64,000 nucleotides of DNA from Candidatus Omnitrophota bacterium (GTDB lineage Bacteria > Omnitrophota > Gorgyraeia > Duberdicusellales > 4484-171), in the NCBI GenBank assembly GCA_018818105.1, contig JAHISK010000055.1, forward strand, positions 4,781-68,780, in the 5' to 3' direction. Made by a program: the position numbers and the translations under genes. This document shows positions 21,535 to 44,545 of the stretch, piece after piece; the first letter of the stretch is position 1, and the number at the start of each line of letters is the position of its first letter. The notes beneath the pieces were generated by a model. It made no database searches. It was given only the letters and a program-made list of their open reading frames with translations, and was not told the DNA's origin.

Positions 21535-21572
21535 TAAAAAAAAGCCGGGTTACCTTTTGAGGTAACCCGGCT
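21535..21572 (-). terminator. Intrinsic terminator / attenuator hairpin (perfect 12-bp stem AGCCGGGTTACC/GGTAACCCGGCT, loop UUUUGA, then U8) about 20 nt upstream of the giant-gene start codon
   Basis: Plus strand reads aaaaaaaagccgggttaccttttgaggtaacccggct. On the minus strand this is a hairpin followed by TTTTTTTT and then ATGCCGGAAGTAAAAAAGATATGGGC. Confidence 0.6.
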
Positions 21573-21599
21573 ATCCTGAATCAATTTTGTACCGAAAGA

Positions 21600-21740
21600 C
21601 GATAGATGTCCGTTCTCTACATCGCTCGGACGATAAACGTTCTTATACTCTCGTTTTTCGTCCTTCGTCTTACATCCTTCGTTACTAGGACCCGTGGCTT
21701 TGCGCCTCCCGATTACTCGAGATTTGCCATTTCTGAAAAA
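21600..21740 (-). ncRNA. Candidate c-di-GMP-I (GEMM) riboswitch aptamer in the 5' leader of the giant gene
   Basis: The minus-strand leader reads AAAUGGCAAAUCUCGA-GUAA-UCGGGAGGCGCAAAGCCACGGGUCC. This resembles the remembered Vc2 consensus GGCAAACC-stem-GNRA-stem-GGGACGCAAAGCC-nCGGG, including a 6-bp stem capped by a GNRA tetraloop. A terminator lies immediately downstream. Not run through a covariance model. Confidence 0.35.
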
Positions 21741-23838: not shown

Positions 23839-23865
23839 ACCACCCCTCCATCTTTTTCAATTCTT

Positions 23866-23900
23866 CCGTCTTCTGGTTTCTATACTCTGGTTTCTGATTA
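23866..23900. repeat. REP-like GAAACCAG-family repeat (CTGGTTTC orientation), single copy
   Basis: Sequence reads ttctggtttctatactctggtttctgatt. Confidence 0.5.
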
Positions 23901-23907
23901 CTCTATA

Positions 23908-25296: not shown

Positions 25297-25324
25297 AACT
25301 TTTCTCTCCCTTAAATATTACTGA

Positions 25325-27397: not shown

Positions 27398-27453
27398 ATT
27401 ATAAATTTATTTTATCCAGATATCGCCCACATGTCAATCTCATCGACGTAAAA

Positions 27454-27485
27454 AGAAACCAGTAACCAGTTTACAGAAACCAGAA
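27454..27485. repeat. REP-like repeat AGAAACCAGTAACCAGTTTACAGAAACCAGAA; left arm of the inverted pair flanking 4HB gene 27497..27853
   Basis: Identical copy at 29112-29143. Reverse-complement partner at 27880-27914. Confidence 0.7.
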
Positions 27486-27496
27486 AATTGCCCAAA

Positions 27497-27853
27497 TCAA
27501 CTATTTAATAAACCTCTCAGCATACTTGTAATTTCTCTAACAGCTAACCTTAACTCTAAATAACATTGTTCCTCTATCAAATTCTGTCTTTTTAAAACAT
27601 TAAGAACAGACGCACATTCTCTTGCAGAATCAGAAGAAATATCAAAATATCTATTCTTTTCTTTTTTAGATTTCTTACCATTTCCCTCTGCTATATTATT
27701 AGCAATAGATAATGCCGCTCTAATAAAATTATTACCAATAGAATATTTATAATCGATTTTTAATCGTTTATATATTTCAAATACTTTGTCTATAAAAACT
27801 AACGTCTTCTGATATACTTTTAAATTTTCAAAATCAAATCTAAACTCTTCCAT
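27497..27853 (-). CDS. Four-helix-bundle protein (23S rRNA intervening-sequence protein family, TIGR02436-like)
   Basis: YQKTLVFIDKVFEIYKRL...AALSIANNIAEGNGK...ECASVLNVL is typical of this family. Confidence 0.75.
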   Translation of the reverse strand: MEEFRFDFENLKVYQKTLVFIDKVFEIYKRLKIDYKYSIGNNFIRAALSIANNIAEGNGKKSKKEKNRYFDISSDSARECASVLNVLKRQNLIEEQCYLELRLAVREITSMLRGLLNS

Positions 27854-27855
27854 TC

Positions 27856-29088: not shown

Positions 29089-29111
29089 AATATTTTTCCT
29101 TTTCTTTTTAT

Positions 29112-29208
29112 AGAAACCAGTAACCAGTTTACAGAAACCAGAATTAAATTTTTATTAATTTCCTCTGGTTATTCTTTCTTCTTTTACATTCTCTGGTTTC
29201 TGGTTACT
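29112..29208. repeat. REPIN-like doublet: GAAACCAG-family repeat (29112-29143) and its inverted partner (29191-29208) separated by about 47 nt
   Basis: agaaaccagtaaccagtttacagaaaccagaa ... ctctggtttctggttact. Confidence 0.65.
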
Positions 29209-29274
29209 TAACTACATTCTACCCAACAACTTACACCTTATCAATCAAAAAATATATTTTATTATTATTTTTAA

Positions 29275-32200
29275 TCAAAGAGATCGAGGCTTAATGAAAG
29301 AAAATATCTTTTTTATATCCTCTGCCATCATATAAATAGATGGAATAATAAAAAGCGTTAAAAAAGTAGAAGTTATCATACCCCCTACAACTGTTACTGC
29401 CAACGGCCGCCAAAGAGAAGAAGTTCCTCCTCTTTGAAAAATTAACGGAATCATTGTTAAAATGGTAGTTAAACTTGTCATAAGAATCGGGCGCAGCCGC
29501 CAAACGACTGCCTTAATTATAGATTCTCGCGCTCCAAAAAAACTATTATTTTTTAAACCTTTATACGCGCCTACGCCGCGCAGCCGGTTAATATAATCTA
29601 TCAGAATAATAGCATTGTTTACTACTATCCCTATAAGAATAACCGAGCCTATATATACGCCTAAACCTATAGGTTCTCCTGATAAACGCAACCCTATTCC
29701 TACCCCAATTATAGCCATGGGCACAGAACTTAACACAATAAATGGTTGAGTATATGATTCAAACACAGAAGCTAATACAAGATATACTAAAAATAGCGCT
29801 AAAAACATCGCCTGAGTTAACTCTCGTTGATTACGTATCATTTTATCGTAATCACCGCCAAAACTATAATGATAATCTTTAGGAAAATCCATTCCGGCAA
29901 GCGCCTCATTTACTAAATCAGCGGATTCACTCAATGACAGCTTACCTGAATCAGCGCTTACCTGAACCATTCTTTCTTTATTTTTACGCCAAATTTCCGC
30001 GGGACCAACGCCAGATTTCACCTCAGCTATCTGCTGTAAATATACCATAGTATTATCCTTTCCTCTCAATGAAAGGTTATAAATATCAGTTAACGTGTCT
30101 CTAAACCCTTTTTCCAACCGCGCTATAGTTTCAATTTGACGCGTCCCTTCGCCTTCAAAGCTGCCAATTCCTCCCATCGCCGCGGAAAGTTTTTTAGTCT
30201 CCTGATGAACTAACTCGTTTCCGTAATTTTTTATCGTGGGTAAATTCTTAACTTCCGAACTCTGCGTCTTAAGCATTACTCCTTCGGCGGATGAAGCATG
30301 AAACCGTGTAGCAATCAACCCACGCAATTTAGCGTGCAAAATATTAGAAACATCCAGCATTGTAAGACCGTATAAAGCTAATTTATTTCTATCAAACAAA
30401 ATATGAACTTCCGGCCGGCCGCTGCGCATCCTTAACTTAACATCATTAAACTTACCCGTACTCTGAATTAATCCTCCTATTTGCTGGGCTAAACTTTTCA
30501 GCAATTCATAATCCGGGCCAAAAACTTCAACCATTATTTCCTTTCTACCAACAGATTCCGGCTGCTGCGCGTATACAAACGCCGGGTCCATATCTTTTGT
30601 TTTCTGTCGTATCTCTTCAATAATCTCATCAACCCCGCGCTTAGAGGAAGAAGGTTTTAACTCAACATAAATTTGTGAAGACCACCCTTTAATTCTTGAA
30701 GTGTGATTTTTTATTTCCGGGATACTATCTAAAATCGCCTCAACTTTCGTTACTACATCGTCGGAAATCTCTATCTTTGTACCTGACGGCATCTGAACGT
30801 ACACAGTAAACCTACTCTGTTCGGCTATCCCTATAAACTCACGTCCCAACCGAGACATCTGAATAAATACTATTATTAGTAAAATAACTGTTCCCGCGAT
30901 AAATAGATATCTTTTTCCTAACACAAAATTTATGCATTTCTTATATCCTCCTACTAAATCATTAAAACGATATCGTTCTATAATTTTGTAAATTTTGTGA
31001 AACCAAATTTTACTGTTTTTTCTCTCATCATTATTAGGTTCAATGACTTGTAATAATTCTTTATCCTCTCTTTTATTTTTTCTTCCCAAATTACCCTTCT
31101 TTGTTGATATTCGAGAAGCCAACAAAGGAACCAGTGTAAAAGAAAAAAATAAAGACGCGAATAACGAGAACACTACCGTTAACGCCAACCCACTGTACAA
31201 ACGTTTAATTTCTTTATTCACAAAAAATAAAGGTAAAAACACAACAATAGTTGTAAGCGTTGAAGCGGCTATCGCGATTAATACTTCGCTGGAACCTTCT
31301 TCAGCGGTTGTTTTTAAATCCTCTGATTCGCTCTGTTTATCAGCTTCCCTTAATTCCTCTCTTTTTTTAAAAATGTTCTCAAGAACAACAATGGAACTAT
31401 CCACTAATATTCCTATCCCTAAAGCTATTCCGCTTAAAGTAACAACATTAATACTAATTCCGCTAAGATACATTAAAGAAAAGGCCGTTATTACTGAAAA
31501 AGGAATAGTTAAAGCGACGACTAAAGTATATTTGAAGTTACGTAAAAAAAGCCATAGCACAATCATCGTTAAAAACGCGCCGATATATAAAGCGTGACGC
31601 ACGGTCGTAATTGCCTGTTTAATGTAATCAGCATGATTAAAATATGGGCGCGTATTTACATCTTGGGGCAAACTTTTCTTCAATTTAGCTAACTCTTTTT
31701 CTACTTCTTCAACAACTTTAATAGTGTTGGCTCCCGACGCTTTTTGAATATACAATGATACTGACGGTTCAGAATTCACTCTTGCCAAAGCATGAGGATC
31801 TAAATAAGAAACACTCACCTTAGCCAAATCTCTTATTCTAACCATATGAGCTTCCCCGCCGGGATTAATTGGCAAATCTTTTATGTCATCTAAAGAAACA
31901 AACTGTCCTACAGTTCTTACTAAATATGTTGTTGAACCGCGTTTTACGTCTCCCGCGACTAAATTCAAATTATTTACGTTTAGCGCCTGGATAACATCAT
32001 CTATGGTAATTCCGTGAGACCGTAACGCGACTTCGTTTAACTCAACAAAAATTTTCTCTTCCCTTCCTCCACCAACCTCAACTTTCGCCACGCCCTCAAT
32101 ACGAGAAAAACGGCTTTTCATTTTGCTTTCGGCTAACCGACGCAACTCCTCAACCGTTCTTATAGGACTGGTTACACCCAAAATAACTACCGGTACCTGT

Positions 32201-32604
32201 GAATACTCATATTTAGCTATAACGGGGCGCTCAACTTCTTTAGGCAAACTCTCCTGCACCTGAGAAAAATGCTCCCTTACTTCTACTACCGCGTAATCTA
32301 AATTAATTTCCGGTTTAAAATAAAGGATAATTCGGCACTCGCCTTCTTCTGAAATTGTAATAATATCTTCTAACCCATCGATAACTGATAACGCGTCTTC
32401 TAAAGGCTTTGCTATTCTATCCTCTACTTCCTGAGGGCTAACCCCTCCTCTAATACGTAAATCAACAGAGATATTTCCAATTTCTACATTAGGTTTCAAT
32501 TCTACCGGCAGGCGAAAAAGAGCAAAGAGCCCTAAAAGAAGAAAAATCAAAAACACCATGGAAATGGCAATTGGTCTACGTATAGATAATTTAGGTAGAT
32601 TCAT
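29275..32604 (-). CDS. RND efflux transporter permease subunit (AcrB/MdtB/C family), copy 2
   Basis: 1109 aa, 12-TM RND architecture. N-terminus MNLPKLSIRRPIAISMVFLIFLLLG... Confidence 0.8.
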   Translation of the reverse strand: MNLPKLSIRRPIAISMVFLIFLLLGLFALFRLPVELKPNVEIGNISVDLRIRGGVSPQEVEDRIAKPLEDALSVIDGLEDIITISEEGECRIILYFKPEINLDYAVVEVREHFSQVQESLPKEVERPVIAKYEYSQVPVVILGVTSPIRTVEELRRLAESKMKSRFSRIEGVAKVEVGGGREEKIFVELNEVALRSHGITIDDVIQALNVNNLNLVAGDVKRGSTTYLVRTVGQFVSLDDIKDLPINPGGEAHMVRIRDLAKVSVSYLDPHALARVNSEPSVSLYIQKASGANTIKVVEEVEKELAKLKKSLPQDVNTRPYFNHADYIKQAITTVRHALYIGAFLTMIVLWLFLRNFKYTLVVALTIPFSVITAFSLMYLSGISINVVTLSGIALGIGILVDSSIVVLENIFKKREELREADKQSESEDLKTTAEEGSSEVLIAIAASTLTTIVVFLPLFFVNKEIKRLYSGLALTVVFSLFASLFFSFTLVPLLASRISTKKGNLGRKNKREDKELLQVIEPNNDERKNSKIWFHKIYKIIERYRFNDLVGGYKKCINFVLGKRYLFIAGTVILLIIVFIQMSRLGREFIGIAEQSRFTVYVQMPSGTKIEISDDVVTKVEAILDSIPEIKNHTSRIKGWSSQIYVELKPSSSKRGVDEIIEEIRQKTKDMDPAFVYAQQPESVGRKEIMVEVFGPDYELLKSLAQQIGGLIQSTGKFNDVKLRMRSGRPEVHILFDRNKLALYGLTMLDVSNILHAKLRGLIATRFHASSAEGVMLKTQSSEVKNLPTIKNYGNELVHQETKKLSAAMGGIGSFEGEGTRQIETIARLEKGFRDTLTDIYNLSLRGKDNTMVYLQQIAEVKSGVGPAEIWRKNKERMVQVSADSGKLSLSESADLVNEALAGMDFPKDYHYSFGGDYDKMIRNQRELTQAMFLALFLVYLVLASVFESYTQPFIVLSSVPMAIIGVGIGLRLSGEPIGLGVYIGSVILIGIVVNNAIILIDYINRLRGVGAYKGLKNNSFFGARESIIKAVVWRLRPILMTSLTTILTMIPLIFQRGGTSSLWRPLAVTVVGGMITSTFLTLFIIPSIYMMAEDIKKIFSFIKPRSL

Positions 32605-32616
32605 AATTATTTAAAA

Positions 32617-32645
32617 GGGTCAAGGGGCAGGGGGCAAGGGGCAAG
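32617..32645. repeat. GC-rich TTGMCCC/GGGKCAA-family repeat; left arm of the inverted pair flanking 4HB gene 32652..33041
   Basis: GGGTCAAGGGGCAGGGGGCAAGGGGCAAG; about 25/28 complementary to 33059-33087. Confidence 0.7.
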
Positions 32646-32651
32646 AAAAAT

Positions 32652-33041
32652 TTAAGATTTCAAAGACTTAATTAACCCCTTTAATAACCGGCCTACTTCT
32701 TGACGTCTATCATTAATCATTTTGTATATTTCAATATTTATATAACCTAAATCTTTAGAAAATAAAAAATACGTTTCCACTTCACCTAATGACCCTTTTG
32801 CTATCATCAAAAACTGAATATATTCTTTACGATACTGCCTTTCATACCCCTCTGCTATATTAGCAACAACCGATATAGCGGCCCTTCTCAATTGAGAAAC
32901 TAAACCATACTGTTCACTCCTAGGATAATCACGCGTAATTTTATATACTTCTAACGCCAATTCATATGCTTTCTTCCATACAATTAACTTCTTAAAACCC
33001 TTCTCCATTTCTTTCTCTCTATATTTTTCTCTCTTAACCAT
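32652..33041 (-). CDS. Four-helix-bundle protein (23S rRNA intervening-sequence protein family), second copy
   Basis: KKLIVWKKAYELALEVYKITRDYP...QLRRAAISVVANIAEGYERQ...MIAKGSLGEVETY. AAGGAAGAAG ribosome-binding site upstream. Confidence 0.8.
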   Translation of the reverse strand: MVKREKYREKEMEKGFKKLIVWKKAYELALEVYKITRDYPRSEQYGLVSQLRRAAISVVANIAEGYERQYRKEYIQFLMIAKGSLGEVETYFLFSKDLGYINIEIYKMINDRRQEVGRLLKGLIKSLKS

Positions 33042-36000
33042 CTCTATATTCTTCTTCCTTGACCCTTGCCCCCTGACCCTTGCCCCTATTTATAAATGCT
33101 GTAACAGAATCATACAGCACAGGGACGAACAAAAGCGTTAGGAACGTGGACGAAAGCAAACCTCCAATTACAGTAATAGCCATAGGAGCCCGTAATTCAG
33201 AACCTTCACCAATACCTATAGCAAGAGGTATCATTCCTAAGACAGTGGTGAAAGTCGTCATAAGAATAGGACGTAGCCGATGCTGACTGGCTTCTAAAAT
33301 AACTTCTTTTAAAGGCAAATTCTTTTTCTTTAAATGGTTCATATAATCCACTAAAACTATCCCGTTATTTACAACAATCCCGCCCAACATAATAGCGCCC
33401 AAAAGAGCGACTACATTCAAAGAAGTAGAAGTTAACTTCAACGCGACGCTTATGCCTATAAGAGAAAGAGGAACTGTAAACATAATAATAAACGGCTGCC
33501 ATAACGACTCAAATTGCGCCGCCATAATCATATAAATTAAAAGAATCGCTAATAAAAAAGCAAACTTCATGCTGTTAAATGATTCCCGCATACGAACGCT
33601 CTCACCAGAAAGGCCTACGTTATATCCTAACGGAATATTTAATTTCTCTACTATACCGGTTAACTGCGTATTAATTTCGCTAACACTGCGTCCATATAAA
33701 TTAGCATTAACAGATATTGTACGGCGCTGGTCTATCCGTTTAATTTCTGTGGGGCCTCTGCCTTTCGCAAGACGGGCAACCTGATAAAGAGGAACCATAA
33801 CATTCCTATACGCCGTCCTAATACCTAAAGATCTGATTCGGGATAAATTCTTTCTATCTTCTTCCTGCAAACGTACTCTAATATCTATAGGATGCGTTAC
33901 ATCCTCCTTAAACTTAGTAAAAACTCTTCCCTTAATGGCAGTATGCGCGGTTAACGCGATATCCTGAGTAGATAAACCTAACAAAGAAGCTTGGTCTTTA
34001 AGTATATATATTTTTGTTTCGGGAGAAGAAGGGACCCTATCATCTTCTATACTATAAACGCCTTTTATCGAAGATAGTTCTTTTTTTATCTGATCAGCTA
34101 CATCGCCCATCTGTAAAAGGTTCTCCCCTTTTATTTCAATTTGAATAGGTTTATCCTCAAACGCTTCCTTCAAAACACTTTCCTGCAAAACATACTCTAA
34201 CTGAGCGCCGATTAAATGTTTTTCTTTCATAATATCCCGCAAACGTTGAATAACGTCTTGCGTGGAAAACAACGAAACAGCTTCCTTTTCCTTTAATTCT
34301 TTATAGGAATACAGCTTCACCATAATTTCGCCCTCATAAGAAGCCAAAGTTTGCACCGCTTTTTCCGTGGGGTTATCTTTATCCGAACCTACTTTTATAC
34401 TAACATCTTTAACTTCTTTTATTTCATTGAGAAGAACTTCCTCCACCATACGCACAGCGTTATCAGTAACTTCTAAACTTGTTCCCGGCTCCATGGTAAG
34501 TTTTATTATAAACTGCCGCTGATCAAGCCGAGGCAAAAATTCGCTGGGCACAGTTTTTAAAATCACCAAGCTTAAAAGAAATAATCCTATAACAACAAAT
34601 ACAAGAATCGCTTTATTATCTAAAGTTTTTGATAAAAGACGGCGGTATAAATTATCAATTCCATTAAAAAGGAGATCAACTTTTGCTTGGCCGTCTTTGC
34701 TTTCTTTAATTCCACCGCCTAAAGAAGAAAGCATCGGCACCAACATCAACGCTATCAATAACGACGAAACCAAAGAAAAGGTTACCGTAAACGCCAATTG
34801 CTTAAAAAGCTGTCCGGCTATACCGGAAAGAAACATCATCGGAAAAAATACGCACACTGTTGTGAGAGTGGAAGAGATAATTGCTCCTTTCATCTGAAAA
34901 GACGCCTGAGACACAAGCGATAACGCTTCTTGCTTTGAGAGTTTTTTGTCCTGTTTTGATCTTTCCTGCTGCCGGCGAAAAATATTTTCAAGAACAACAA
35001 TAGAGTTATCCACTAACATTCCTACTCCTAATGCCAACCCTCCTAAAGAAATCATGTTCAAAGAAATATTCCTGGAAAACATCAATATAAACACACCCAT
35101 AATTGATATAGGAATAGCTGTAGCAATAATTAAAGAAATCTTAAGGTTCCTTAAAAAAACGAGTAAAACTAGAAAAGCCAAAACCCCGCCGCCTATGGCA
35201 GCGTTCCTAACTCCTTTTATCGAATTCGCGACATACACCGACTCATCATAAGCAATATCCAACTTTACGTCTAAAGATGGATTTTTATTCATTCGATACA
35301 CTTCTTCTTTAACCCTCTCACAAACGTCTATTACATTAGCGCCAGACTGTCTCTTAATTGAAATAGATATGTTTTCAACACCATTATGGCGGGAAATACT
35401 TTCTTTTTCTTTAGCTACATTTTTTACCTGAGCGATATCACTTAGCCGAACTAACCGGGCAGTTTTCTCCTGAAGCTCATCCTTAATGCCAAGTTGGCGT
35501 TCTCTCTGCTCTTCTTCAGTTTCAGGAACATCCACTAAAACTGTTAACTCACTGATTTCATCTAACGTCTCAAACTCACCTATTGTTCTGACCAAATGCT
35601 CATAAAAACTTCCCTTTATCGACCCCGCGGGATAATTAATATTTGATTTTTTTATTACCGAGCCTAAATCCAACAAAGAAAGGCCTGAAGCCTGTAGCCG
35701 TGACTGATCAACCTCTATTAGAATCTCCCGCCCAACTCCTCCTGTAATAACCGCGGCGGCAACACCTTTTAACTTTTCTAAATCATCTTTCATTTGCCGC
35801 TCACAAACTTCCCTCAATTCTAACAAAGACTCTTTTCCCGTCACGCTTAACACAATAACCGGTTTCTCAAAGGGATTATACTTCATAACAATCGGTTCAC
35901 CGCAATCCCTCGGAAGGCGTTCCTTAACTAAATCTATTTTTTCACGCACCTCCAAAGCGGCTAAATCCATGTTCGTTCCCCAGTCAAAACGCACCATTAC

Positions 36001-36291
36001 CATAGATAACGCTTCCCGGGAAATTGAGCTAATCTGTTTAACCCCGCTTATCGCCCCGCCCGATTCTTCTAAAATTTGAGATATTAAACTTTCAACTTCT
36101 TCCGGGGCCGCCCCTTCATAGGGTGTCAAAATTGTTATTTGAGGATACGATATGGAAGGAAATAATTCCTGAGAAAGGCGGGACAAAGAAACCATTCCCA
36201 TAACTACAACCGCTAAAAAAATCATAGCCGTAGTAACAGGGCGCATTATGAAGATACTAATCTTTTCCAGTTTCTTTCTTCGGTCTTTCAT
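33034..36291 (-). CDS. RND efflux transporter permease subunit (AcrB family), copy 1. The start is probably ATG at 36291; the track start 36333 reads through a repeat
   Basis: MRPVTTAMIFLAVVVMGMVSLSRL...PYEGAAPEEVE; 12-TM RND fold. Confidence 0.8.
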   Translation of the reverse strand: MKDRRKKLEKISIFIMRPVTTAMIFLAVVVMGMVSLSRLSQELFPSISYPQITILTPYEGAAPEEVESLISQILEESGGAISGVKQISSISREALSMVMVRFDWGTNMDLAALEVREKIDLVKERLPRDCGEPIVMKYNPFEKPVIVLSVTGKESLLELREVCERQMKDDLEKLKGVAAAVITGGVGREILIEVDQSRLQASGLSLLDLGSVIKKSNINYPAGSIKGSFYEHLVRTIGEFETLDEISELTVLVDVPETEEEQRERQLGIKDELQEKTARLVRLSDIAQVKNVAKEKESISRHNGVENISISIKRQSGANVIDVCERVKEEVYRMNKNPSLDVKLDIAYDESVYVANSIKGVRNAAIGGGVLAFLVLLVFLRNLKISLIIATAIPISIMGVFILMFSRNISLNMISLGGLALGVGMLVDNSIVVLENIFRRQQERSKQDKKLSKQEALSLVSQASFQMKGAIISSTLTTVCVFFPMMFLSGIAGQLFKQLAFTVTFSLVSSLLIALMLVPMLSSLGGGIKESKDGQAKVDLLFNGIDNLYRRLLSKTLDNKAILVFVVIGLFLLSLVILKTVPSEFLPRLDQRQFIIKLTMEPGTSLEVTDNAVRMVEEVLLNEIKEVKDVSIKVGSDKDNPTEKAVQTLASYEGEIMVKLYSYKELKEKEAVSLFSTQDVIQRLRDIMKEKHLIGAQLEYVLQESVLKEAFEDKPIQIEIKGENLLQMGDVADQIKKELSSIKGVYSIEDDRVPSSPETKIYILKDQASLLGLSTQDIALTAHTAIKGRVFTKFKEDVTHPIDIRVRLQEEDRKNLSRIRSLGIRTAYRNVMVPLYQVARLAKGRGPTEIKRIDQRRTISVNANLYGRSVSEINTQLTGIVEKLNIPLGYNVGLSGESVRMRESFNSMKFAFLLAILLIYMIMAAQFESLWQPFIIMFTVPLSLIGISVALKLTSTSLNVVALLGAIMLGGIVVNNGIVLVDYMNHLKKKNLPLKEVILEASQHRLRPILMTTFTTVLGMIPLAIGIGEGSELRAPMAITVIGGLLSSTFLTLLFVPVLYDSVTAFINRGKGQGARVKEEEYRDG
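33059..33087. repeat. GC-rich TTGMCCC-family repeat; right arm of the inverted pair flanking 4HB gene 32652..33041
   Basis: TTGACCCTTGCCCCCTGACCCTTGCCCCT. Confidence 0.7.
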
Positions 36292-36304
36292 AAAAATATT
36301 TTGT

Positions 36305-36662
36305 AGGGTCAAGGGGCAGGGGTCATGGGTCAAAGAATTAGAAAGCTAACCAATCCTTTCACCAAAAACCTAATTTTATATCTAAAAACGAAACTAAATA
36401 CCCCTTATTACAACTTAATATCTATTTTAAAGATAAAAACAAATATTGAAAGATATTTTTATCTCTTACCCCATTTTCTTATCTTGATTTATCTTTTTCT
36501 ATCTCCCCTCTTCATCTATGGACTATGGTCTATCGACTATGGACGAATTATTCTCCCTTCTCCCCTTTCTCTAACTTTGCTTTCTCCTTAACCTAAAACT
36601 TAAAACCATTTTTCCTTGCCCCTTGACCCTTCTTCTCTTAATTCTTCCTTGACCCATGACCC
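36305..36662. repeat. Inverted pair of TTGMCCC-family repeats (36305-36334 and 36612-36662) enclosing about 270 bp with no convincing gene
   Basis: GGGTCAAGGGGCAGGGGTCATGGGTCAAAG ... CCTTGCCCCTTGACCC...CCTTGACCCATGACCCAT. The interior contains ctatggac x3. Confidence 0.55.
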
Positions 36663-36780: not shown

Positions 36781-38631
36781 TTACATCTGCTCCACCATCT
36801 CCACATACTCCTGCCCCCAATCTTTCACTAAATCACCAAAATTATCCGAAATAAAACTTTTTAATTCGTCAGGGTCTTCATTAATAGGAATGCTTACTTC
36901 ACCAAAACTTTGATTATCCACTATCTTTTCTAGAGCTTGAACTTTTAAACTTAACATCCTAAGATAAACTTTACCTAATTCTGTATCTAAATCAATTAAA
37001 TCTTGCTGATACGTTTCTTGAAACTTATCAAACATATCTAAAACTTTACCATTTTCACCCCACTCTAAATAATTCTGAGCTTGACTACGCATAAAATTAG
37101 CGTCCGCGGCAGCAGCATCAACCTCTGACGCGGTTATTGTGAAATCTATATCATCTACAAAAGTAATCTCAATCAAATAAATATCTTCTTTATTCAAAGC
37201 GGCCGCGGATAATCCATAACTTGCTCTAGCAAACATTTCAACTCCGGCTTTATTCATTGTTTTATATTCCTGAATAACATCATAAATCGTACCGGCAACA
37301 TCCTCAGTTGTATGGAAAAAATCCCGTAACTGCTCAACATTCATATCCTGAACTTGATAAAAACATACATACCTTTCCTGCAAAAGACTATCCCCTATCT
37401 CAAACACCACTTTATCTCCGTCTTTATACATATCATTAATCCAATCCTGATTAAATTCATTAACTTCCAAACCTATGGAATCCATCCCTCCCTCAACAGT
37501 ATATGATATATATTTACCTGAATAAACCGATTCCCCGGTAGCTGAATCAAGACTAAGCTCCCAAGCCTTCACATGTAAACTTCCTTTCCACTCATGAACC
37601 CAACTGGCATATTCAGTACCATCATCATCAATAACCCCCTGTTCAGCTATGCCGAACGCATTATGTTTTTCATAAGTTCCTTCAAAATAATTTATCACTT
37701 TAACTAAATGATGATTCTCCCAAAGATAGGTTATCTTTAACGCCCCAAACCTATCCCGCGTCTCATACATTTCGCTTCCCCACTTATCAAACTTGGTAAC
37801 ATCACCGTCAACCATTTCATACTGAAACATTTTTCCGTCTTTTAAAATAGGATTATCCTCCTCATCAACAACTAAAATACTTATCTTCTCAATTCTCAAT
37901 AAACTATCCCCTTCCTGCCGCCAATAAGCTACTAATTCTCCATCCTTAGACCCTTTTCTTTCTTCTATGGGACTGCCGTTATTATAGCGTTTCCAAACTT
38001 GAGTGGCAAGATTATGCTCCCAATATCCTGTTCCCGACTGATCATATTCATAGATATGCGTAATATTATGATGGCTATCATTCCTTTCCATAAGATTATT
38101 TCTCCAGTACCGTTCATATTCTAAAACATCACCCCATTCATTCGTCACCCTACATTCAATTACTTTACTACCATTCTGTTCCCCTACCGCATACCAATCA
38201 TATTTCCTTATCGCGAGTTTCTCATCAAGACGCCATCCATTAGCCTCAAATGTTTCCGCGTCCATCTTAAACGCTTTTTTACCGCCTCTAAACCGAATAA
38301 CATCTCCATTCCGTTCAATCCGCAACTCAGGTTTACCATTAAAATAGAAAGTTTTGTTACCATATTTATCAACAATTATTGAAGGATATTTTGACGCGAT
38401 TTGAGGAATTTGAACGTTTAAAGGATAAGCCACTTCAGCATAATTACTTATTTGTTTCCACTGCGGTATTATACGGGGATCACCGGGATCAGTATGAAAA
38501 GCGGACCCGGGAAGAACCATCATGTCTTGAGCAAAACTTAGTAAAGGAAAAATAACGATAAAGACAAAAAGTATTCCTTTAAAATACTTATTGAAATTAA
38601 TTCCTTTTATAATTTTTTCTATATGATTCAT
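36781..38631 (-). CDS. Secreted protein of unknown function (616 aa from ATG 38631; signal peptide ILFVFIVIFPLLSFA)
   Basis: AAGGAAGAAG ribosome-binding site before ATG 38631; the track start 38781 overlaps the upstream gene. W/Y/E-rich beta-type sequence, no motif recognised. Confidence 0.6.
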   Translation of the reverse strand: MNHIEKIIKGINFNKYFKGILFVFIVIFPLLSFAQDMMVLPGSAFHTDPGDPRIIPQWKQISNYAEVAYPLNVQIPQIASKYPSIIVDKYGNKTFYFNGKPELRIERNGDVIRFRGGKKAFKMDAETFEANGWRLDEKLAIRKYDWYAVGEQNGSKVIECRVTNEWGDVLEYERYWRNNLMERNDSHHNITHIYEYDQSGTGYWEHNLATQVWKRYNNGSPIEERKGSKDGELVAYWRQEGDSLLRIEKISILVVDEEDNPILKDGKMFQYEMVDGDVTKFDKWGSEMYETRDRFGALKITYLWENHHLVKVINYFEGTYEKHNAFGIAEQGVIDDDGTEYASWVHEWKGSLHVKAWELSLDSATGESVYSGKYISYTVEGGMDSIGLEVNEFNQDWINDMYKDGDKVVFEIGDSLLQERYVCFYQVQDMNVEQLRDFFHTTEDVAGTIYDVIQEYKTMNKAGVEMFARASYGLSAAALNKEDIYLIEITFVDDIDFTITASEVDAAAADANFMRSQAQNYLEWGENGKVLDMFDKFQETYQQDLIDLDTELGKVYLRMLSLKVQALEKIVDNQSFGEVSIPINEDPDELKSFISDNFGDLVKDWGQEYVEMVEQM

Positions 38632-38702
38632 TTTGTCTTCTTCCTTAGTAATTATTAGGACAGACTGTTCTCTTTTAACTGATCCCCATACAGCTAAAAG
38701 CA

Positions 38703-38740
38703 TGGAAGGGAAAAAGAAAAAGAGGGGGATAGCCCCCTCT
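38703..38740 (-). terminator. Intrinsic terminator (AGAGGGGG-AUAG-CCCCCUCU, then U-rich tract) after gene 38760..41789
   Basis: Perfect 8-bp GC-rich stem. The minus-strand reading is followed by TTTTTCTTTTT. Confidence 0.6.
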
Positions 38741-38759
38741 TTTTCTAATGTTTTCTTTA

Positions 38760-41700
38760 TTACATAAGTAAATCTTGCCAACCGACATGAGCTTGAAAAT
38801 CACCGCTGTTAAACCCTAACATATACACGTATACGCCAACACCGGAAGCATCACCTTCTCGCGCCTCGCTCTGTAACCCGTAACATGTTAACGGATTTGC
38901 CGCCGGATCTGTTAACGTATTTTGTATTTGAGTAACAGCTTCTGCTCTCTCATATCCTTCCACATACCGAAAATCTACTGTAATTTTACTTACTAATACA
39001 GCTTCCGGGTTCTCTTCCTCATTATAAAACTGTTTTACTGCCGGTTTTTCACCCGCCGCTAAATTAGCATTACAATTAGCGATTTCAGCATCAAAGGCAT
39101 TACGTTGATCCTGAGTTATTAGATTATTCCACCAATACTGATCCACATGAACCACATTCTCTATATCAGTCCAATACCATACCGCAGCATCAACCCTTAT
39201 CCGATCTAACCCGTTAGCCGGATCTTTATACTGTTCTAAATTTGAACTAGTTAACGCAACCCCCTGCTCATCAGTAACCCCAAGAACATATGATGTATAC
39301 GCCGGATCACCACCGTCTTGAATAGCCATTGCTAACTGATCCAAATTAATACTCAATATCTGATTCTCCTTAGGTAATTCCTTGGTAAAATCTTCACCGA
39401 CAAGATTAACATTTTTTAAAGTACCTTGCATGGAAACTCCCGAAATATAAACGTTCACTTTTGCTAAATTATTCAGAAATGTTTGGTCATAAGTTATCTC
39501 TGCCGCGGCAGAATCCCTCAGTCTTAAAAAATCAGCCTTTACAATAGAAGCATCATACGCAATAACATTATCATTATTATATTGAGTACTTTTTACTCCA
39601 TTAGTATCGACTGTTTCTTCCCCAATCCATAGCCTAATCTCGCCGTTCTCTTCTAAAAAATTCATGCATATTCTTTCTCCATCCTCACCAAAAAATCTAG
39701 TGTCAGATCTATTCAATACAACACCCTCCGGATTACCGTTAACAAGGTTAAATAAAAAATCAACTAACTCCCGCTTATCTTCCATACTCATGCTTTTCAA
39801 CTTACTCCGAGTACTCGCATCTAAACAATAGCTTGTATGGTAATCTTTTTTGTCAGCTATATAATTTATAATAGCATCTATATTCTCATCTGTAAATTCA
39901 AGATTACCATAAATAACACTCTCTAATGTATTGTTTTCAGCGGCATTGGTTTTGCCGAACATAATATGCGTAGTCCTTTCTCTGCTAAGACTAAGACCTA
40001 CTTCCGGAGCAAGAGAGCATAATGTATCAGCGTAAACCGCTTTCGCATTATCTAGATCTTCTTCTGTTAAATTAGGATTTAACATCCACTCATAACGGCT
40101 GGCACTTGTCTCATCACCTACTTCAACCATTACTTTTTTCTTATAAACTTTTAAATAACCTTTGTATTTACCGATAACTTCTCCTGTTGCCACATCTAAT
40201 TCAATCTCTTCAATATTAATATCAGCGATTGTCTCAATATCACCGCCTAAACCTATAACCATATACTGATATGTCCCATCACTAATAAGGCTTCCCGCTA
40301 AAAGGCCATTCACTCCAAAAAGTTCTTCTAACCGCTGATCTAATCGGCCTAAAAGAAGATCTAAGTTCGTAGGGACATAATCTATAATCTCTATCATCGC
40401 GACAGCAGTATCTTCTATACTCAAATACTCATGATGATACGTATTTGGATCTATAACATCCCCATTCTCATCCAAATAAATAATTGTATCTACCCCTCCA
40501 GCAAAATATCTTTGCCTTAAAGATCTAATTTGAAAATCCGTAAGTTTAACCGCATTAAGTTGTCCGGACCTTGCGCCCCATACATGCAACCGTTCTAATA
40601 TAACTGAATAATCCGCATAATTATCACCTGCAGTGCTAGCATCAAAAAGCGTATATAACTGATAATATATCGGTGTTTTATTGCCGTCAGCATCAACTAC
40701 CGCTACATTAGTTATTATATTTTGTTCCAATATTTCCCGATCGGCAGACGCAAGCCTATCTACCAACTCATTGACCGACTCTGCATCTTTAAAAAACGCG
40801 TCTACATCATTTAGTTTATTCTTAATAATAGCTCGAGCACGATTAATCGATGTACCTTCAGCATCTGTATCACTATCATTAGCAAGCAACCCTAACTTCA
40901 TAGTACTATCCGGATACGCTGGATCATCATACCGATAATCCATAATCGCATTAACTACAGCTATAAATTGCTCTGCTCCGGCAAGATTATTCAAATATGC
41001 ATCTAACCCGCCGTCACTTACAGTATTCGGAGTTACCGCATTTATCGCATCAATAATCATATTTTCATCCGCATGCATCGCCTTTATTGCCTCTCTTAAA
41101 TTTCCTATCTCTACGAGATCCTCGCTCGCAATAATACTTTCTATTAAATATTCTATGCTGACAAGCCCCAACGCCTGTTTTCTTACGTCTTTAATATCAA
41201 CTATAATTTTTTGCTCATTTGATCCTGTTAAGCAAAATTGTCCATCAATAAATTCTAAATTAATAGCATCCGGCCCCGCTTTTATAAACAAATCGTTAAC
41301 CCACTTGACAATTTTATAATCATTTGGCGTATTATCTGATAAAGCTATTCGGAAAGTGGGTTGTCCAAACTCATCAAATAAAGTCCATACATTGTTCATT
41401 TCTATTGATCCATCTTCATTCATAGTAAAAGAAACACTATAAATAGGTTTATTCCCTTCATAAATTATTGTTGCAATTTTATACATAGCTCCGCTTTCTG
41501 CATCCCAAATAAAAGTAAAAAGAGTTTTACCTCCCGGACTTGTGATATATTCCCCCTTATTATTAACAGTTAAGCTTACATCCCCGCGGGAATCCTTAAG
41601 CTGGATAGAATTCAGACTATTAGTATTAAGATCATTTAAAGCACGCAAAATACCCCCGGTTTCTATATAAGCCCCTATCATTCTAAACGCCGTATTCTTA

Positions 41701-41789
41701 TCAGCGCCGCTCAGCGTTTCCGCATCCACGCGTATCCCAAAAGAACAAACTAACCCAACTAACACAAAAAGTTTAAACATCCTACTCAT
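38760..41789 (-). CDS. Large secreted protein of unknown function (about 1009 aa from ATG 41789; signal peptide MSRMFKLFVLVGLVCSFGIRVDA)
   Basis: GGGAGG ribosome-binding site 9 nt before ATG 41789. The track's extended start 41906 reads through a polypyrimidine, repeat-rich leader. Confidence 0.6.
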   Translation of the reverse strand: MSRMFKLFVLVGLVCSFGIRVDAETLSGADKNTAFRMIGAYIETGGILRALNDLNTNSLNSIQLKDSRGDVSLTVNNKGEYITSPGGKTLFTFIWDAESGAMYKIATIIYEGNKPIYSVSFTMNEDGSIEMNNVWTLFDEFGQPTFRIALSDNTPNDYKIVKWVNDLFIKAGPDAINLEFIDGQFCLTGSNEQKIIVDIKDVRKQALGLVSIEYLIESIIASEDLVEIGNLREAIKAMHADENMIIDAINAVTPNTVSDGGLDAYLNNLAGAEQFIAVVNAIMDYRYDDPAYPDSTMKLGLLANDSDTDAEGTSINRARAIIKNKLNDVDAFFKDAESVNELVDRLASADREILEQNIITNVAVVDADGNKTPIYYQLYTLFDASTAGDNYADYSVILERLHVWGARSGQLNAVKLTDFQIRSLRQRYFAGGVDTIIYLDENGDVIDPNTYHHEYLSIEDTAVAMIEIIDYVPTNLDLLLGRLDQRLEELFGVNGLLAGSLISDGTYQYMVIGLGGDIETIADINIEEIELDVATGEVIGKYKGYLKVYKKKVMVEVGDETSASRYEWMLNPNLTEEDLDNAKAVYADTLCSLAPEVGLSLSRERTTHIMFGKTNAAENNTLESVIYGNLEFTDENIDAIINYIADKKDYHTSYCLDASTRSKLKSMSMEDKRELVDFLFNLVNGNPEGVVLNRSDTRFFGEDGERICMNFLEENGEIRLWIGEETVDTNGVKSTQYNNDNVIAYDASIVKADFLRLRDSAAAEITYDQTFLNNLAKVNVYISGVSMQGTLKNVNLVGEDFTKELPKENQILSINLDQLAMAIQDGGDPAYTSYVLGVTDEQGVALTSSNLEQYKDPANGLDRIRVDAAVWYWTDIENVVHVDQYWWNNLITQDQRNAFDAEIANCNANLAAGEKPAVKQFYNEEENPEAVLVSKITVDFRYVEGYERAEAVTQIQNTLTDPAANPLTCYGLQSEAREGDASGVGVYVYMLGFNSGDFQAHVGWQDLLM

Positions 41790-41919
41790 ACTACCGTACC
41801 TCCCTCTTTTTTCTACAATATTATTATTCTTATTATTACCTACTCTCTGTTTTCTCATCCTTCGTCCTTCTTCCCTCATCTCTCGTTTCATCTTCATCCT
41901 CCCCATATTTATTTATATC

Positions 41920-42390
41920 TATTATCTCCAATCTCCCATCTATAATCTGCCATCTAAAAAAAAGCCGGGTCACCCAACTTTTCTGTTCGGCAACCCGGCT
42001 CCTAAATACGTAGAAACGCGACTAAAAATACTTTAGCAATCACATTTCCACTATCTACGCCGTGGCTTTCCCCTCTTACTCTAAACGAATAAGAAGAGCT
42101 TTTTCGTAGAAAGTCAAAATTAACTTATTCCCTTCAAAGAACCTTTATTTCACCCACTTACCACCTCGTAGGTGGTAAGTATCTGCTATCTGAAATCTCC
42201 CATCTCCCATCTAAAAAAAAGAAACCGGGCCACCTTCTATTCGGCAGCCCGGCTAAACTAAATGTAGAAATGCGCATGTATCTAAGAGAAAAACCTCCCC
42301 TCATCAACTGCTACCTTCTACTCCCGTGGCTTTCCCCTCTTACTCTAAACGAATAAGAAGAGCTTTTCGTAGAAAGAAAACTAAGAAAAA
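41920..42390 (-). repeat. Two tandem ~264-bp leader units, each ending in a GCCGGG hairpin terminator (41955-42000 and 42212-42253), upstream of secreted-protein gene 38760..41789
   Basis: Conserved block ccgtggctttcccctcttactctaaacgaataagaagagctttt(t)cgtagaaag at 42060-42114 and 42324-42376. AATCTCCCATCT repeats sit before each A-tract plus hairpin. Confidence 0.65.
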
Positions 42391-42711
42391 AATAGCCCGA
42401 CTAAATAACTATTTTCCTCTATTATAATAAAGAACTGTTAAATTCCTAATTACCCTAATTGTTAAATACTTATTGAAAATATTGATCTTATGCCTCCCCT
42501 TTGGCATGTTACACATATATACCATATATTTACCATATTTTTCAAGCTTTTCTAGCATTTTTTTTCAAAAAATTCATCTTCTTTCATAACTATTTGATAA
42601 TCAACCAGTAATGAACCTCAAAAATAGAGAATTTTTATATTTATTTTCCCGTATCTTTAAATAAAGCATATTTTTCACGCATATTAGCCTCTTCGGTATA
42701 AAATAGTTCCC

Positions 42712-42745
42712 TGCCCCCCTTTTTCAAAAAAAAAAAGGGGGGGGA
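42712..42745. repeat. Homopolymer hairpin CCCCCCTTTTT-CAAAAAA-AAAAAGGGGGGGG, about 70 nt upstream of the HTH-MNT promoter
   Basis: C6 and G8 tracts are unusual in this AT-rich context. Confidence 0.5.
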
Positions 42746-42809
42746 GGAGATAGTTGTGGTTTTTCCATCTTTCACGATATCTACAAACATTCACCCAACA
42801 GAAAATTAC

Positions 42810-42864
42810 TTGACAAACACCCTAATGTAAGATATATTTTACACATGTAAACAAAAATTTACAT
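42810..42864 (+). promoter_or_regulatory. Near-consensus sigma70 promoter (TTGACA-17-TATATT) plus palindromic operator ATGTAAA-N6-TTTACAT, upstream of the HTH-MNT/HEPN/PIN operon
   Basis: ttgacaaacaccctaatgtaagatatattttacacATGTAAAcaaaaaTTTACATaattATG. Confidence 0.5.
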
Positions 42865-42868
42865 AATT

Positions 42869-43498
42869 ATGCAAAAACTACTCGACAATATCTTAAATAC
42901 TCCGGTAAAAGTGAAAATATTACGCTTGCTCACCTACAGGCCCCCCACTTACTTAGTCTCTGGACGAGAAATTGCCCGATTAATACATGTTAGCGCGCCC
43001 ACCGCGCATGCCGCGCTAAAAGAATTATATAATACTGATATTTTGCAATTAGAAATCATTAGCAGAAACCATATCTATCGGCTAAACATAAAGAATAGAA
43101 CCGTTAAAGATATTATTATTCCTATGTTTAAAAAAGAGGAGTCTCTAAAACAGGACATTATTACTTTTATAAAAAAACAGATTACATCTAACAATATAAA
43201 AAAGAACATTATTTCCCTCATTCTCTACGGAAGCTTTCAAACAGAAACAACCACTGAAAAAAGCGACATCGATATAGCAATAATTGCTGAGTCTAGCGCG
43301 GCTACACAAAAAATCGAAAAAACATTCAGTAAAGAGATAACAGATAAATTTCATGATTATTTCGGTATTCATCTCGATATTTACATAAAAACTAAAGAAG
43401 AATTTATAGAGCGGCTCAAGAAAAATTTACCGCCAGTTTCGACATTAATAAAATCTTACTATATAATTTATGGTAAAGATCCTTTGGATTTAAAATAA
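42869..43498 (+). CDS. Winged-HTH + minimal nucleotidyltransferase (MNT, Pol-beta superfamily) protein; antitoxin-like partner of HEPN
   Basis: N-terminal wHTH (LVSGREIARLIHVSAPTAHAALKEL). NTase motif LILYGSFQTETTTEKSDIDIAII. Confidence 0.65.
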   Translation: MQKLLDNILNTPVKVKILRLLTYRPPTYLVSGREIARLIHVSAPTAHAALKELYNTDILQLEIISRNHIYRLNIKNRTVKDIIIPMFKKEESLKQDIITFIKKQITSNNIKKNIISLILYGSFQTETTTEKSDIDIAIIAESSAATQKIEKTFSKEITDKFHDYFGIHLDIYIKTKEEFIERLKKNLPPVSTLIKSYYIIYGKDPLDLK

Positions 43499-43499
43499 A

Positions 43500-43907
43500 A
43501 TGTCTCCTAAAAAAATTAAAATACGACAAGAAGAAAAATCAGCAGCGGCAGATTACCTTAAAAAAGCTGAAGATAATCATGCTGAAATGATACTTGCGTT
43601 ACAAAATAAAAATTATAACGCGGTAGGAACATTAGCCATACAACGCGCTATCTCATCCGCCGATGCTATCTGTGTTTATGAAAAAGGAATAAGATCTATC
43701 TCTGAAGTCCATCTTGATGTATGTGAACTTTTAAAATCTCTGCCCCTTCCAGACGCGAAAGATAAAAGTAATATTTTAAAACGGATTATTGCCAAAAAAA
43801 ATATCATCCAATATGAAAGGCGAAGTATTTACGAAAAAGAAGCACATGAAATAGCTAAATCCGCTAATAGACTTTATCAATGGGTTATTATAGTGCTGAC
43901 AAAATAA
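43500..43907 (+). CDS. HEPN-domain protein; candidate RNase toxin of the HEPN/MNT pair
   Basis: 135 aa, all-alpha, R-x7-H-like motif in ERRSIYEKEAHE. A 1-nt gap to the MNT gene indicates translational coupling. Confidence 0.55.
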   Translation: MSPKKIKIRQEEKSAAADYLKKAEDNHAEMILALQNKNYNAVGTLAIQRAISSADAICVYEKGIRSISEVHLDVCELLKSLPLPDAKDKSNILKRIIAKKNIIQYERRSIYEKEAHEIAKSANRLYQWVIIVLTK

Positions 43908-43954
43908 CATTTAAATATATTGCGAAAAATATACCCTTGCATTACAATAAAAAC

Positions 43955-44545
43955 ATGACAAAAAAAATAATAAAGATCATCCTCGACACCAGCATATTCG
44001 TTAACCCTGACTCCCGGCACTTTTTCGGCAATAAACCCCATGAGGCCCTCGATAATTTCTTAAGTTTAGTTAAAAAAACAAATCACATAACCTGTTATAT
44101 CCCCCCTTCTGTATATGAAGAACTGATGAAATTCATGGAAAAGCCTATTTCTGCTAAAAAAGCCATACTTATCAATAAAAAACCGCCAGCTTCTTATAAA
44201 ACGCCGATACCAGCCCTTTTTCTATATGAATTTATTGAAGAAATGCGGCAGCGCTTAAATAAAGGCCTGCGAATTGCCGAAAAGTACGCCCGTAAAAGTT
44301 CCGGGGGCAGTAAAACAACCCCTCACGATAGCATCATTAAAAGCCTTCGTGAAGAATACCGAGTAGCTTTACGGGAAGGAATTCTCGACAGTAAAGAGGA
44401 TTTTGACTTAATTCTTCTTGCTTATGAGCTCGGCGCTCACTTATCTACTTCTGATAACGGCCTCATAAAATGGGCGCAAAAACTAGGCATCCCCTGTCTA
44501 TCCGCGGAAGAACTGAAAGAAATAATCAATCAGACTGAAGACTAA
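43955..44545 (+). CDS. PIN-domain nuclease-like protein (196 aa from ATG 43955)
   Basis: IILDTSIF... N-terminal acidic motif, ...YEEL..., and DFDLILLAYELGAHLSTSD C-terminal acidic motif. The track start 43880 overlaps the HEPN gene. Confidence 0.5.
   Translation: MTKKIIKIILDTSIFVNPDSRHFFGNKPHEALDNFLSLVKKTNHITCYIPPSVYEELMKFMEKPISAKKAILINKKPPASYKTPIPALFLYEFIEEMRQRLNKGLRIAEKYARKSSGGSKTTPHDSIIKSLREEYRVALREGILDSKEDFDLILLAYELGAHLSTSDNGLIKWAQKLGIPCLSAEELKEIINQTED

Follow-up and report, generated by a model that had tools for sequence, protein, structure and literature searches.

Tandem GEMM-I-like aptamer and terminator units in the leader of an orphan secreted-protein operon of an Omnitrophota bacterium

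Layout of the leader and its repeat units

We analysed a 64,000-nucleotide (nt) stretch of a contig from a Candidatus Omnitrophota bacterium (hereafter the window), in which two similar units lie one behind the other upstream of a gene for a 1009-aa orphan protein (gene 1) and of a second gene that follows it (gene 2). Each unit consists of a fold related to the aptamer of the cyclic di-GMP (c-di-GMP)-I or GEMM-I riboswitches, with an intrinsic terminator directly behind it; unit A is distal and unit B proximal to gene 1. The same window contains a giant gene whose leader carries a canonical riboswitch of this class. The coordinates of these features, with the paired regions (P) and joining strands (J) of the aptamers, are given in Table 1. 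Window features discussed here lie on the minus strand unless the plus strand (+) is indicated.

Table 1. Positions of the leader elements, the genes downstream of them and the giant-gene riboswitch
Feature	Position	Strand	Details
Perfect palindrome TTGATTATCAA	42594..42604	-	~50 nt upstream of -35; in block conserved with second genome (L004)
Putative leader promoter	42516..42545	-	TTGAAA 42545-42540, 18-nt spacer, TGgTATATA (extended -10, 42521-42516); consensus-type match
Unit A aptamer (distal)	42232..42378	-	RF01051 match over whole model, 20.9 bits; fold z -2.76
Unit A helices and junctions	P1 5' 42375-42368; J1/2 AAAAG 42367-42363; P2 42362-42334 (12 bp, loop GUUUA)	-	Fold and consensus structure
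Unit A, continued	J2/3 AA 42333-42332; P3 42331-42246, long distal extension; J3/1 GC 42245-42244; P1 3' 42243-42234	-	Same basis
Unit A intrinsic terminator	42213..42254	-	5' arm AGCCGGGCUGCC 42254-42243; loop 42242-42235; 3' arm 42234-42223; tail UCUUUUUUUU 42222-42213
Unit B aptamer (proximal)	41978..42115	-	RF03167 match over whole model, 21.0 bits; fold z -4.36
Unit B helices and junctions	P1 5' 42112-42105; J1/2 AAAAAG 42104-42099; P2 42098-42070 (same as unit A)	-	Fold and consensus structure
Unit B, continued	J2/3 42069-42068; P3 42067-41992, distal part unrelated to unit A sequence; J3/1 41991-41990; P1 3' 41989-41980	-	Same basis
Unit B intrinsic terminator	41956..42000	-	5' arm AGCCGGGUUGCC 42000-41989; 3' arm GGGUGACCCGGC 41975-41964; U8 41963-41956
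Ribosome-binding site and ATG of gene 1	41787..41806	-	GAGGGAGG 41806-41799, ATG 41789; AAAAGAGGGAGGTAC..ATG motif also in L004
Gene 1 (putatively regulated)	38760..41789	-	1009-aa orphan protein, predicted signal peptide
Gene 2 (putatively regulated)	36781..38781	-	Conserved ~600-640 aa protein, predicted signal peptide or transmembrane segment
Canonical c-di-GMP-I riboswitch and terminator of giant gene	21536..21738	-	Aptamer 21738-21558, RF01051 54.7 bits vs gathering 35

The units occupy a 1.08-kb divergent intergenic region, between a minus-strand gene run that starts at 41789 and a plus-strand set that starts at 42869, and are in sense orientation 166 nt upstream of gene 1. A 44-nt block was 100% identical between them (42060-42103 and 42324-42367), and a further 13-nt match followed after a 1-nt indel (42101-42113 and 42364-42376), so that the spacing is 263-264 nt, as expected from the initial annotation, which had described head-to-tail units of ~264 bp. 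P2 was identical at 29 of 29 positions, which suggests local gene conversion between the two copies. Apart from a possible N-terminal extension of gene 1, no open reading frame of at least 60 aa was found in 41920-42400.

The exact sequence AAAGCCACGG occurred in the window only at 21692, 42060 and 42324, that is, in the three leaders. The terminator arm AGCCGGGYTRCC was found five times in the 64 kb, where 0.33 occurrences were expected, and all five belonged to the two units or to the giant-gene leader (21543-21572). These counts agree with the earlier proposal of a hairpin family common to the units and to 21543-21572. Copies at random positions were not seen; those of AGCCGGGYTRCC and AAAGCCACGG all lay in leaders of secreted-protein genes. 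An independent ENA assembly from the same population had the leader sequence unchanged, although over 22 kb it differed from the window by one single nucleotide polymorphism and one T10/T11 tract; the last 310 nt of the leader were also covered by a third assembly (Logan). An assembly artefact is thus excluded as the source of the tandem repeat.

Two candidates for additional units were rejected. An A/U-rich hairpin with a U-run upstream of unit A (~42385-42420) had no aptamer core and was absent from the second genome described below. A possible inverted degenerate copy at 42700-42811 (+) matched R1, a covariance model built from four units, with 16.3 bits, and was no better than shuffled sequence in local alignment to unit A or unit B (28/300 and 67/300 shuffles, respectively, reached its score).

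Aptamer folds and overlapping terminators

When searched at relaxed thresholds, both units aligned to the full length of c-di-GMP-I models, at scores below the Rfam gathering scores (35 bits for RF01051 and 59 bits for the c-di-GMP-I-GGC model RF03167). The junction strands matched the consensus in length and sequence, with ACG-A(A/U)AAAG before P2 and AA after it, and beyond P2 both units continued according to the consensus (AGCC-A-CGG ... AG-CCGGGYU, GC, CGAA). The equivalents of G20 (end of J1/2), A47 (first nt of J2/3) and C92 (GC of J3/1), which are the c-di-GMP-contacting nucleotides in the Vc2 riboswitch of Vibrio cholerae (PMC4744006), were present in the RF01051/RF03167 alignments of all four units from the window and the second genome. 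The three-way junction of P1, P2 and P3 was recovered both by single-sequence minimum-energy folds and by the RNAalifold consensus. In the alignments to the Rfam models, the low scores trace to P2 and to 53-54 nt inserted in P3.

Each unit had been reported to end in a hairpin with a U-tract, and the fold energies and z-scores bear this out: the unit A hairpin (stem 42254-42223) had -23.2 kcal/mol (z -3.25) and that of unit B (~42000 to 41964) -29.8 kcal/mol (z -6.3). In unit A, the terminator 5' arm combines the P3 3' strand and J3/1 with the first part of the P1 3' strand. The aptamer and terminator folds are mutually exclusive, with the strand AGCCGGGYUGCC (P3 3' strand, J3/1 and first P1 nt) used in both and the remainder of the P1 3' strand forming the terminator loop. 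In the four units and the giant-gene riboswitch, the full-length minimum-energy fold contained the terminator (-59 to -70 kcal/mol), and the aptamer fold formed at -44 to -50 kcal/mol when the terminator 3' arm was blocked. Because the terminator fold is the more stable, the units are predicted to terminate transcription by default and to allow read-through when a ligand keeps P1 and P3 closed.

At gathering thresholds, Rfam returned exactly one RNA family in the window, the c-di-GMP-I riboswitch at 21558-21738 in the giant-gene leader. The candidate riboswitch placed at 21600-21740 by the initial annotation is therefore a bona fide member of the class, its 54.7 bits lying above the gathering score. 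Its distal P3 carries a 102-nt insertion, and its terminator (arms 21572-21561 and 21554-21543, U8 21543-21536) uses the P3 3' strand as 5' arm. It has in common with the units the P3 base, the terminator arm GCCGGGUURCC, the U8 tract, the aptamer/terminator overlap and an expanded distal P3, but differs from them in being a single copy and in having a canonical P2 (GGCAAA...GUAA loop...GGCGC, with the C44 equivalent). The units had been called reminiscent of this leader. The likeness is closer than that in the ligand-pocket junctions, which are common to both, but does not extend to P2, where the units have neither the internal loop, nor the GNRA loop, nor the C44 equivalent. The same aptamer architecture and aptamer/terminator overlap support the broader proposal that the units are tandem cis-regulatory attenuators which control surface-protein genes and are related to the giant-gene leader. 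A plus-strand R1 match of 16.9 bits at the giant-gene leader was rejected, as the model had misread the terminator hairpin as P2. The giant gene itself starts at ATG 21515, exceeds 7000 codons and runs off the window start; its product begins with a hydrophobic signal-like segment and showed no Pfam match in its first 1500 aa.

Several further sequence features accompany the units. Runs of AGAUNNN heptads follow directly after the terminators of unit A (42212-42178: AGAUGGG AGAUGGG AGAUUUC AGAUAGC AGAUACU) and unit B (41955-41914: AGAUGGC AGAUUAU AGAUGGG AGAUUGG AGAUAAU AGAUAUA). These runs are GGA-rich, gave only weak rows in Tandem Repeats Finder and have no counterpart in the second genome; they could be a protein-binding array or be meaningless. 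Between the units lies another hairpin (ACUUACCACCUACGAGGUGGUAAGU, 42150-42178), with a perfect stem of 12 bp and a UACG loop; no U-tract follows it, and it is likewise absent from the second genome. The motif GUUCUUUGAAG stands ~30 nt upstream of three of the four aptamers (42133-42142 in the window; 6849-6858 and 6650-6659, minus strand, in the second genome).

Conservation and gene context

A genome scan with the core pattern of the units led to CP070797.1, an Omnitrophota chromosome (locus L004). This locus contains two tandem units, each with an aptamer and a terminator with U-tract, together with a promoter-like element, and a signal-peptide gene comes next. The conservation of arrangement, promoter and downstream gene type in a second genome further supports the attenuator proposal. 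The scan gave 26 loci, of which 24 were outside Omnitrophota; none of these 24 matched R1 or, among those scanned, any Rfam family, and they were treated as chance matches.

The RNAalifold consensus of the four units of the two genomes comprised an 8-bp P1 that has an AA bulge, a P2 of 11-12 bp, and P3. Among the four units, pairing was preserved through two-sided changes at eight pairs, five of them in P2. The distal part of P3 was identical at 36 of 44 positions between unit A and its L004 counterpart, compared with 17 of 44 between units A and B. The distal P3 of unit A is thus orthologous between the genomes, indicating that the duplication predates the split of the lineages and was kept in both. 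Most of the elements that the core pattern retrieved from metagenomes were canonical c-di-GMP-I elements with a CC/GG base of P2. A plain P2 was seen in a few metagenomic elements, L034 and two in L043, all under the Rfam threshold. The junction strands, J1/2 included, were conserved across the two genomes and these unrelated metagenomic elements. In an alignment of nine sequences (the units and their nearest relatives), which was fitted to the model, 94.7% of cells were paired, compared with 41-53% when the partners were slid. Double changes occurred in 25 of 41 pairs, a count that none of 500 shuffles reached, and compensatory changes were seen in 6/8 P1 pairs and 11/12 P2 pairs.

These comparisons also bear on whether the units have any regulatory role. 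The exact identity of the 44-nt block is what a selfish dispersed repeat or an assembly artefact might produce, and chance similarity could also be considered. On the other side, the independent assemblies were identical, the copies were confined to leaders of secreted-protein genes rather than dispersed, and an orthologous pair with covariation exists in a second genome. In viral contigs, the two-gap pattern had no match and a 15-nt motif only chance matches. On these sequence grounds, a selfish, artefactual or chance origin is effectively refuted.

A promoter-like element lies upstream of unit A, and a scan found no such site between the units. The element is near-invariant between the window and L004 (~6960-7030), and transcription of the leader probably starts near 42509. 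The palindrome TTGATTATCAA upstream of it is possibly an operator; near-invariance of palindrome and promoter suggests that a DNA-binding protein also controls transcription here. The 5' end of the leader contains a conserved hairpin, AUGCC-[AAAGGGGA]-GGCAU, with GGA in its loop, followed by a conserved AAGAUCAAUAUUUUCAA (42490-42507 in the window, ~6917-6932 in L004). We take this GGA-loop hairpin to resemble a CsrA-type binding site. In the divergent region, upstream of both promoters, lies a homopolymer hairpin (42701-42755; C8 T11 ... A6 G6 on the minus strand), whose T-tract (~42726-42736) was T11 in one and T10 in the other of two assemblies of the same population, making phase variation of this tract possible.

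Further GEMM-I-like elements were observed in other contigs. One Omnitrophota contig carries a c-di-GMP-I element of 37.6 bits upstream of a signal-peptide gene (L001 2262-2402 (+) and L045 981-1124 (+)), in which P2 is expanded to a multi-hairpin domain consisting of a canonical P2 and hairpins CCCCUUCGGGG and CCAGAGUAAAAUCUGG; a second, canonical copy on the same contig scored 64 bits (7013-7092). The contig L043, 8.5 kb from activated sludge, has three GEMM-I-like elements (2762-2868, 6446-6577 and 8184-8310, minus strand), each preceding a signal-peptide gene, and two of these genes are paralogous. The plain P2 of the window units recurs in two of the three elements, and the remaining one is near-canonical, with 54.5 bits against RF03167.

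In the window and in L001, L004 and L043, every gene that directly follows a GEMM-I or GEMM-I-like element encodes a signal peptide at its start, which fits the usual link between c-di-GMP and surface proteins. The initial annotation had placed a 1009-aa secreted-protein gene behind the units. The GAGGGAGG ribosome-binding site, the ATG at 41789 and the signal peptide agree with this and make 41789 a probable start; in-frame ATGs also lie further upstream (41906), and the NCBI call is 1043 aa. The gene 1 product is 100% identical to NCBI KKF54_03305, its sole database relative being itself; it had no Pfam, NCBIfam or PDB match and showed weak similarity to its L004 counterpart. The gene 2 product was 35% identical to that of L004 2062-3786 (E 2e-114), had no family match in Pfam, NCBIfam or PDB sequence searches, and gave an unusable single-sequence AlphaFold2 model (predicted local distance difference test score 31.8). 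The two-gene cassette is the only part of the gene neighbourhood common to L004.

Further downstream on the same strand (22657-36333) lie two AcrB-like resistance-nodulation-division genes, a helix-turn-helix gene, an OEP/TolC-like gene with a TonB_C domain, an HlyD-like gene and a WD40 beta-propeller gene; the ENA gene calls downstream of the cassette also include two small 23S_rRNA_IVP/bAvd-like genes. The giant-gene riboswitch follows this gene run, again on the same strand. The divergent set (42869-44545 (+)) comprises a MarR-like/nucleotidyltransferase gene, a HEPN gene and a PIN_5 ribonuclease gene, and its nucleotidyltransferase/HEPN pair resembles a toxin-antitoxin module.

Predicted switching, probable ligand and significance

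From the folds and the conserved pocket, we infer that the units bind a ligand, that this ligand is most likely c-di-GMP, and that binding would switch the operon on with a sharp response. The region would then be the 5' leader of an orphan secreted-protein operon that carries two complete, independent transcriptional riboswitches in series, each made of a GEMM-I-derived aptamer and the terminator directly after it. Without ligand, the terminator would form and transcription would stop at unit A, after ~300 nt, or at unit B, after ~560 nt. A bound ligand would keep P1 and P3 closed, so that the terminator could not nucleate and the polymerase would read through. Both units would have to be read through and their read-through probabilities would multiply, which predicts lower leakiness and a steeper response. 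We consider it probable that the units are two serial c-di-GMP-responsive ON switches, and are more confident that they act in cis as functional terminator-type regulatory switches of one sort or another.

The strong terminators should yield abundant short RNAs in the OFF state. Some terminated riboswitch transcripts have been reported to act in trans as small RNAs, and the short transcripts here (an RNA of ~300 nt with its end at 42213, one from unit B, or both) might be the main products, with the AGAU/GGA-rich repeat tracts and the conserved 5' leader hairpins as interaction sites. No target complementarity was identified, however, and the sense position directly upstream of the gene, in conserved synteny, already explains a role in cis, to which a trans role would be an addition rather than a replacement. 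We therefore regard trans-acting RNAs as the main products of the leader as very improbable.

Several results weigh against c-di-GMP-responsive switches. The scores were low: unit A reached 20.9 bits with RF01051 (E 0.21 in a 1.2-kb search; gathering score 35), unit B 21.0 bits and the L004 unit A 30.2 bits (E 5e-5) with RF03167 (gathering score 59), and the L004 unit B had no Rfam match at E up to 1. Only one orthologous genome was found (CP070797.1), and protein searches for further orthologous operons, one of which used a two-sequence profile, gave nothing beyond the cluster of the query itself. A look-up of the gene at the window end, aimed at a longer contig, had no match. The invariance of the P3 base and J2/3 comes partly from a search pattern that required them, although J1/2 and P1, which lie outside the pattern, were still conserved or covarying. 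R1 did not recover the giant-gene aptamer (3.9 bits with filters off), a reciprocal search that says little either way because this model is too narrow (effective sequence number 1.13).

The structural departures from canonical GEMM-I weigh on the same side. In the units, P2 is a continuous helix of 11-12 bp with a 5-nt loop, GUUUA or GUAUA, and with three ordinary pairs in place of the canonical AAA/GAC internal loop. It carries no GNRA tetraloop, and a receptor motif is absent from the corresponding part of P3. The equivalent of G83 (AG bulge) is present, but the position of C44 is G in both window units and the L004 unit B and A in the L004 unit A; it is paired inside P2 and covaries with its partner (C-G to U-A; RNAalifold columns 21/45), so that the interhelical C44-G83 pair cannot form. 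This Watson-Crick pair has been described as universally conserved among GEMM riboswitches (PMC4744006), and the Vc2 mutants G83C and C44G/G83C did not bind ligand (PMC11705072). Among 120 distinct elements that share the core, 111 had C at this position and 9 did not. P3 of the units has, next to the AG bulge, an A/U-rich internal loop of 8-11 nt on its 3' side, and a long distal hairpin extends it by 50-60 nt.

These departures could mean that the same fold and serial antitermination serve a ligand other than c-di-GMP, either a dinucleotide (cyclic or linear) or an unrelated molecule, or that c-di-GMP is bound at a very different affinity through a new P2-P3 docking. Both interhelical contacts used for docking and binding in Vc2 are missing, C at the C44 position is lacking in only the 9 elements above, P3 has gained its internal loop and extension, and the best Rfam model alternates between RF01051 and the variant RF03167. 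The three nucleotides that set specificity in the pocket are unchanged, however. G20 is G and not the A of relatives selective for cyclic GMP-AMP (PMC9481103), and the genomic context is typical of c-di-GMP control. Likewise, RF03167 was the best-scoring model for unit B (21.0), the L004 unit A (30.2), L034 and L043, but the nucleotide immediately 3' of P2 is G in its consensus (GCGAAGCC) and A in the units (GGAAAGCC), which in this respect follow ordinary c-di-GMP-I; with this G absent and 21.0 and 30.2 bits against a gathering score of 59, the units do not belong to RF03167. We therefore think a different ligand, or a very different affinity, rather unlikely.

The low scores and the loss of a contact essential in Vc2 might instead reflect decayed aptamers that bind nothing, leaving two attenuators that are constitutive or controlled by a protein (an RNA-binding antiterminator or a general termination factor) and keep the operon low. 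The terminators are far more stable than the aptamer folds, and the flanking GUUCUUUGAAG and the GGA-loop hairpin, both conserved, could be protein-binding sites. Decay would be expected to erase the junctions, yet these are conserved in two genomes and in L034 and L043, including J1/2 outside the search pattern; compensatory changes maintain the helices, and an old duplication was kept in both lineages. Decayed aptamers are accordingly a quite unlikely explanation. Judged by sequence and predicted fold, the units are a structural variant of the RF01051 fold with its pocket intact rather than plain members of RF01051, and the continued selection on junctions and helices argues that they still sense some ligand, most probably c-di-GMP.

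Compared with GEMM-I of the Vc2 type (RF01051), the units have the same P1/P2/P3 junction, J1/2 ending in AAAG, J2/3 AA, J3/1 GC and P3 base (AGCC-A-CGG / AG-CCGGGYU), a terminator platform that overlaps P3 and P1, and a site upstream of secreted or surface-protein genes. They differ in the plain P2, the absent tetraloop/receptor and C44, the extended P3 and the sub-threshold scores. Tandem arrangements are common among c-di-GMP-I riboswitches, with 347 doublets and 12 triplets published (PMC9481103), the Bc3-5 triplet of Bacillus thuringiensis has been tested experimentally and gives a more digital response (PMC4759541), and such a response is described in the tandem c-di-GMP-I literature (PMC9481103, PMC4759541, PMC12452182). 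Like these systems, the leader has at least two aptamer and terminator units of one class in one predicted 5' untranslated region, a surface or secreted protein as target and predicted serial ON switching that would be sharper and less leaky; it differs in its Omnitrophota host and in its divergent simple-P2 aptamers. The tandem layout is thus well known, and the unusual part is the sub-threshold aptamer variant without both interhelical contacts. As a tentative and rather doubtful extension, the simple-P2 elements (the window and L004 units, L034 and L043) may form a distinct functional GEMM-I subclass that dispenses with both contacts and uses a different c-di-GMP docking or affinity range, or another ligand, and that in Omnitrophota gates orphan secreted-protein cassettes next to the giant genes of the phylum.

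A literature search for riboswitches in Omnitrophota returned no paper on the subject. Should c-di-GMP not bind to the units, they would be an ordinary attenuator pair derived from a riboswitch. If they do respond to c-di-GMP, riboswitch control by this signal would extend to Omnitrophota, a poorly understood phylum, and one signal would gate both the giant surface-protein gene and an orphan secreted-protein operon ~20 kb apart, which would give a first handle on when these enigmatic proteins are produced. Surveys that apply Rfam gathering scores overlook this pair, so counts of c-di-GMP-I riboswitches in candidate phyla, tandem or single, are probably too low. The units would also be a natural experiment on the GEMM-I fold, with the pocket intact and both long-range contacts regarded as necessary for docking gone, and their binding behaviour would show what recognition truly requires.

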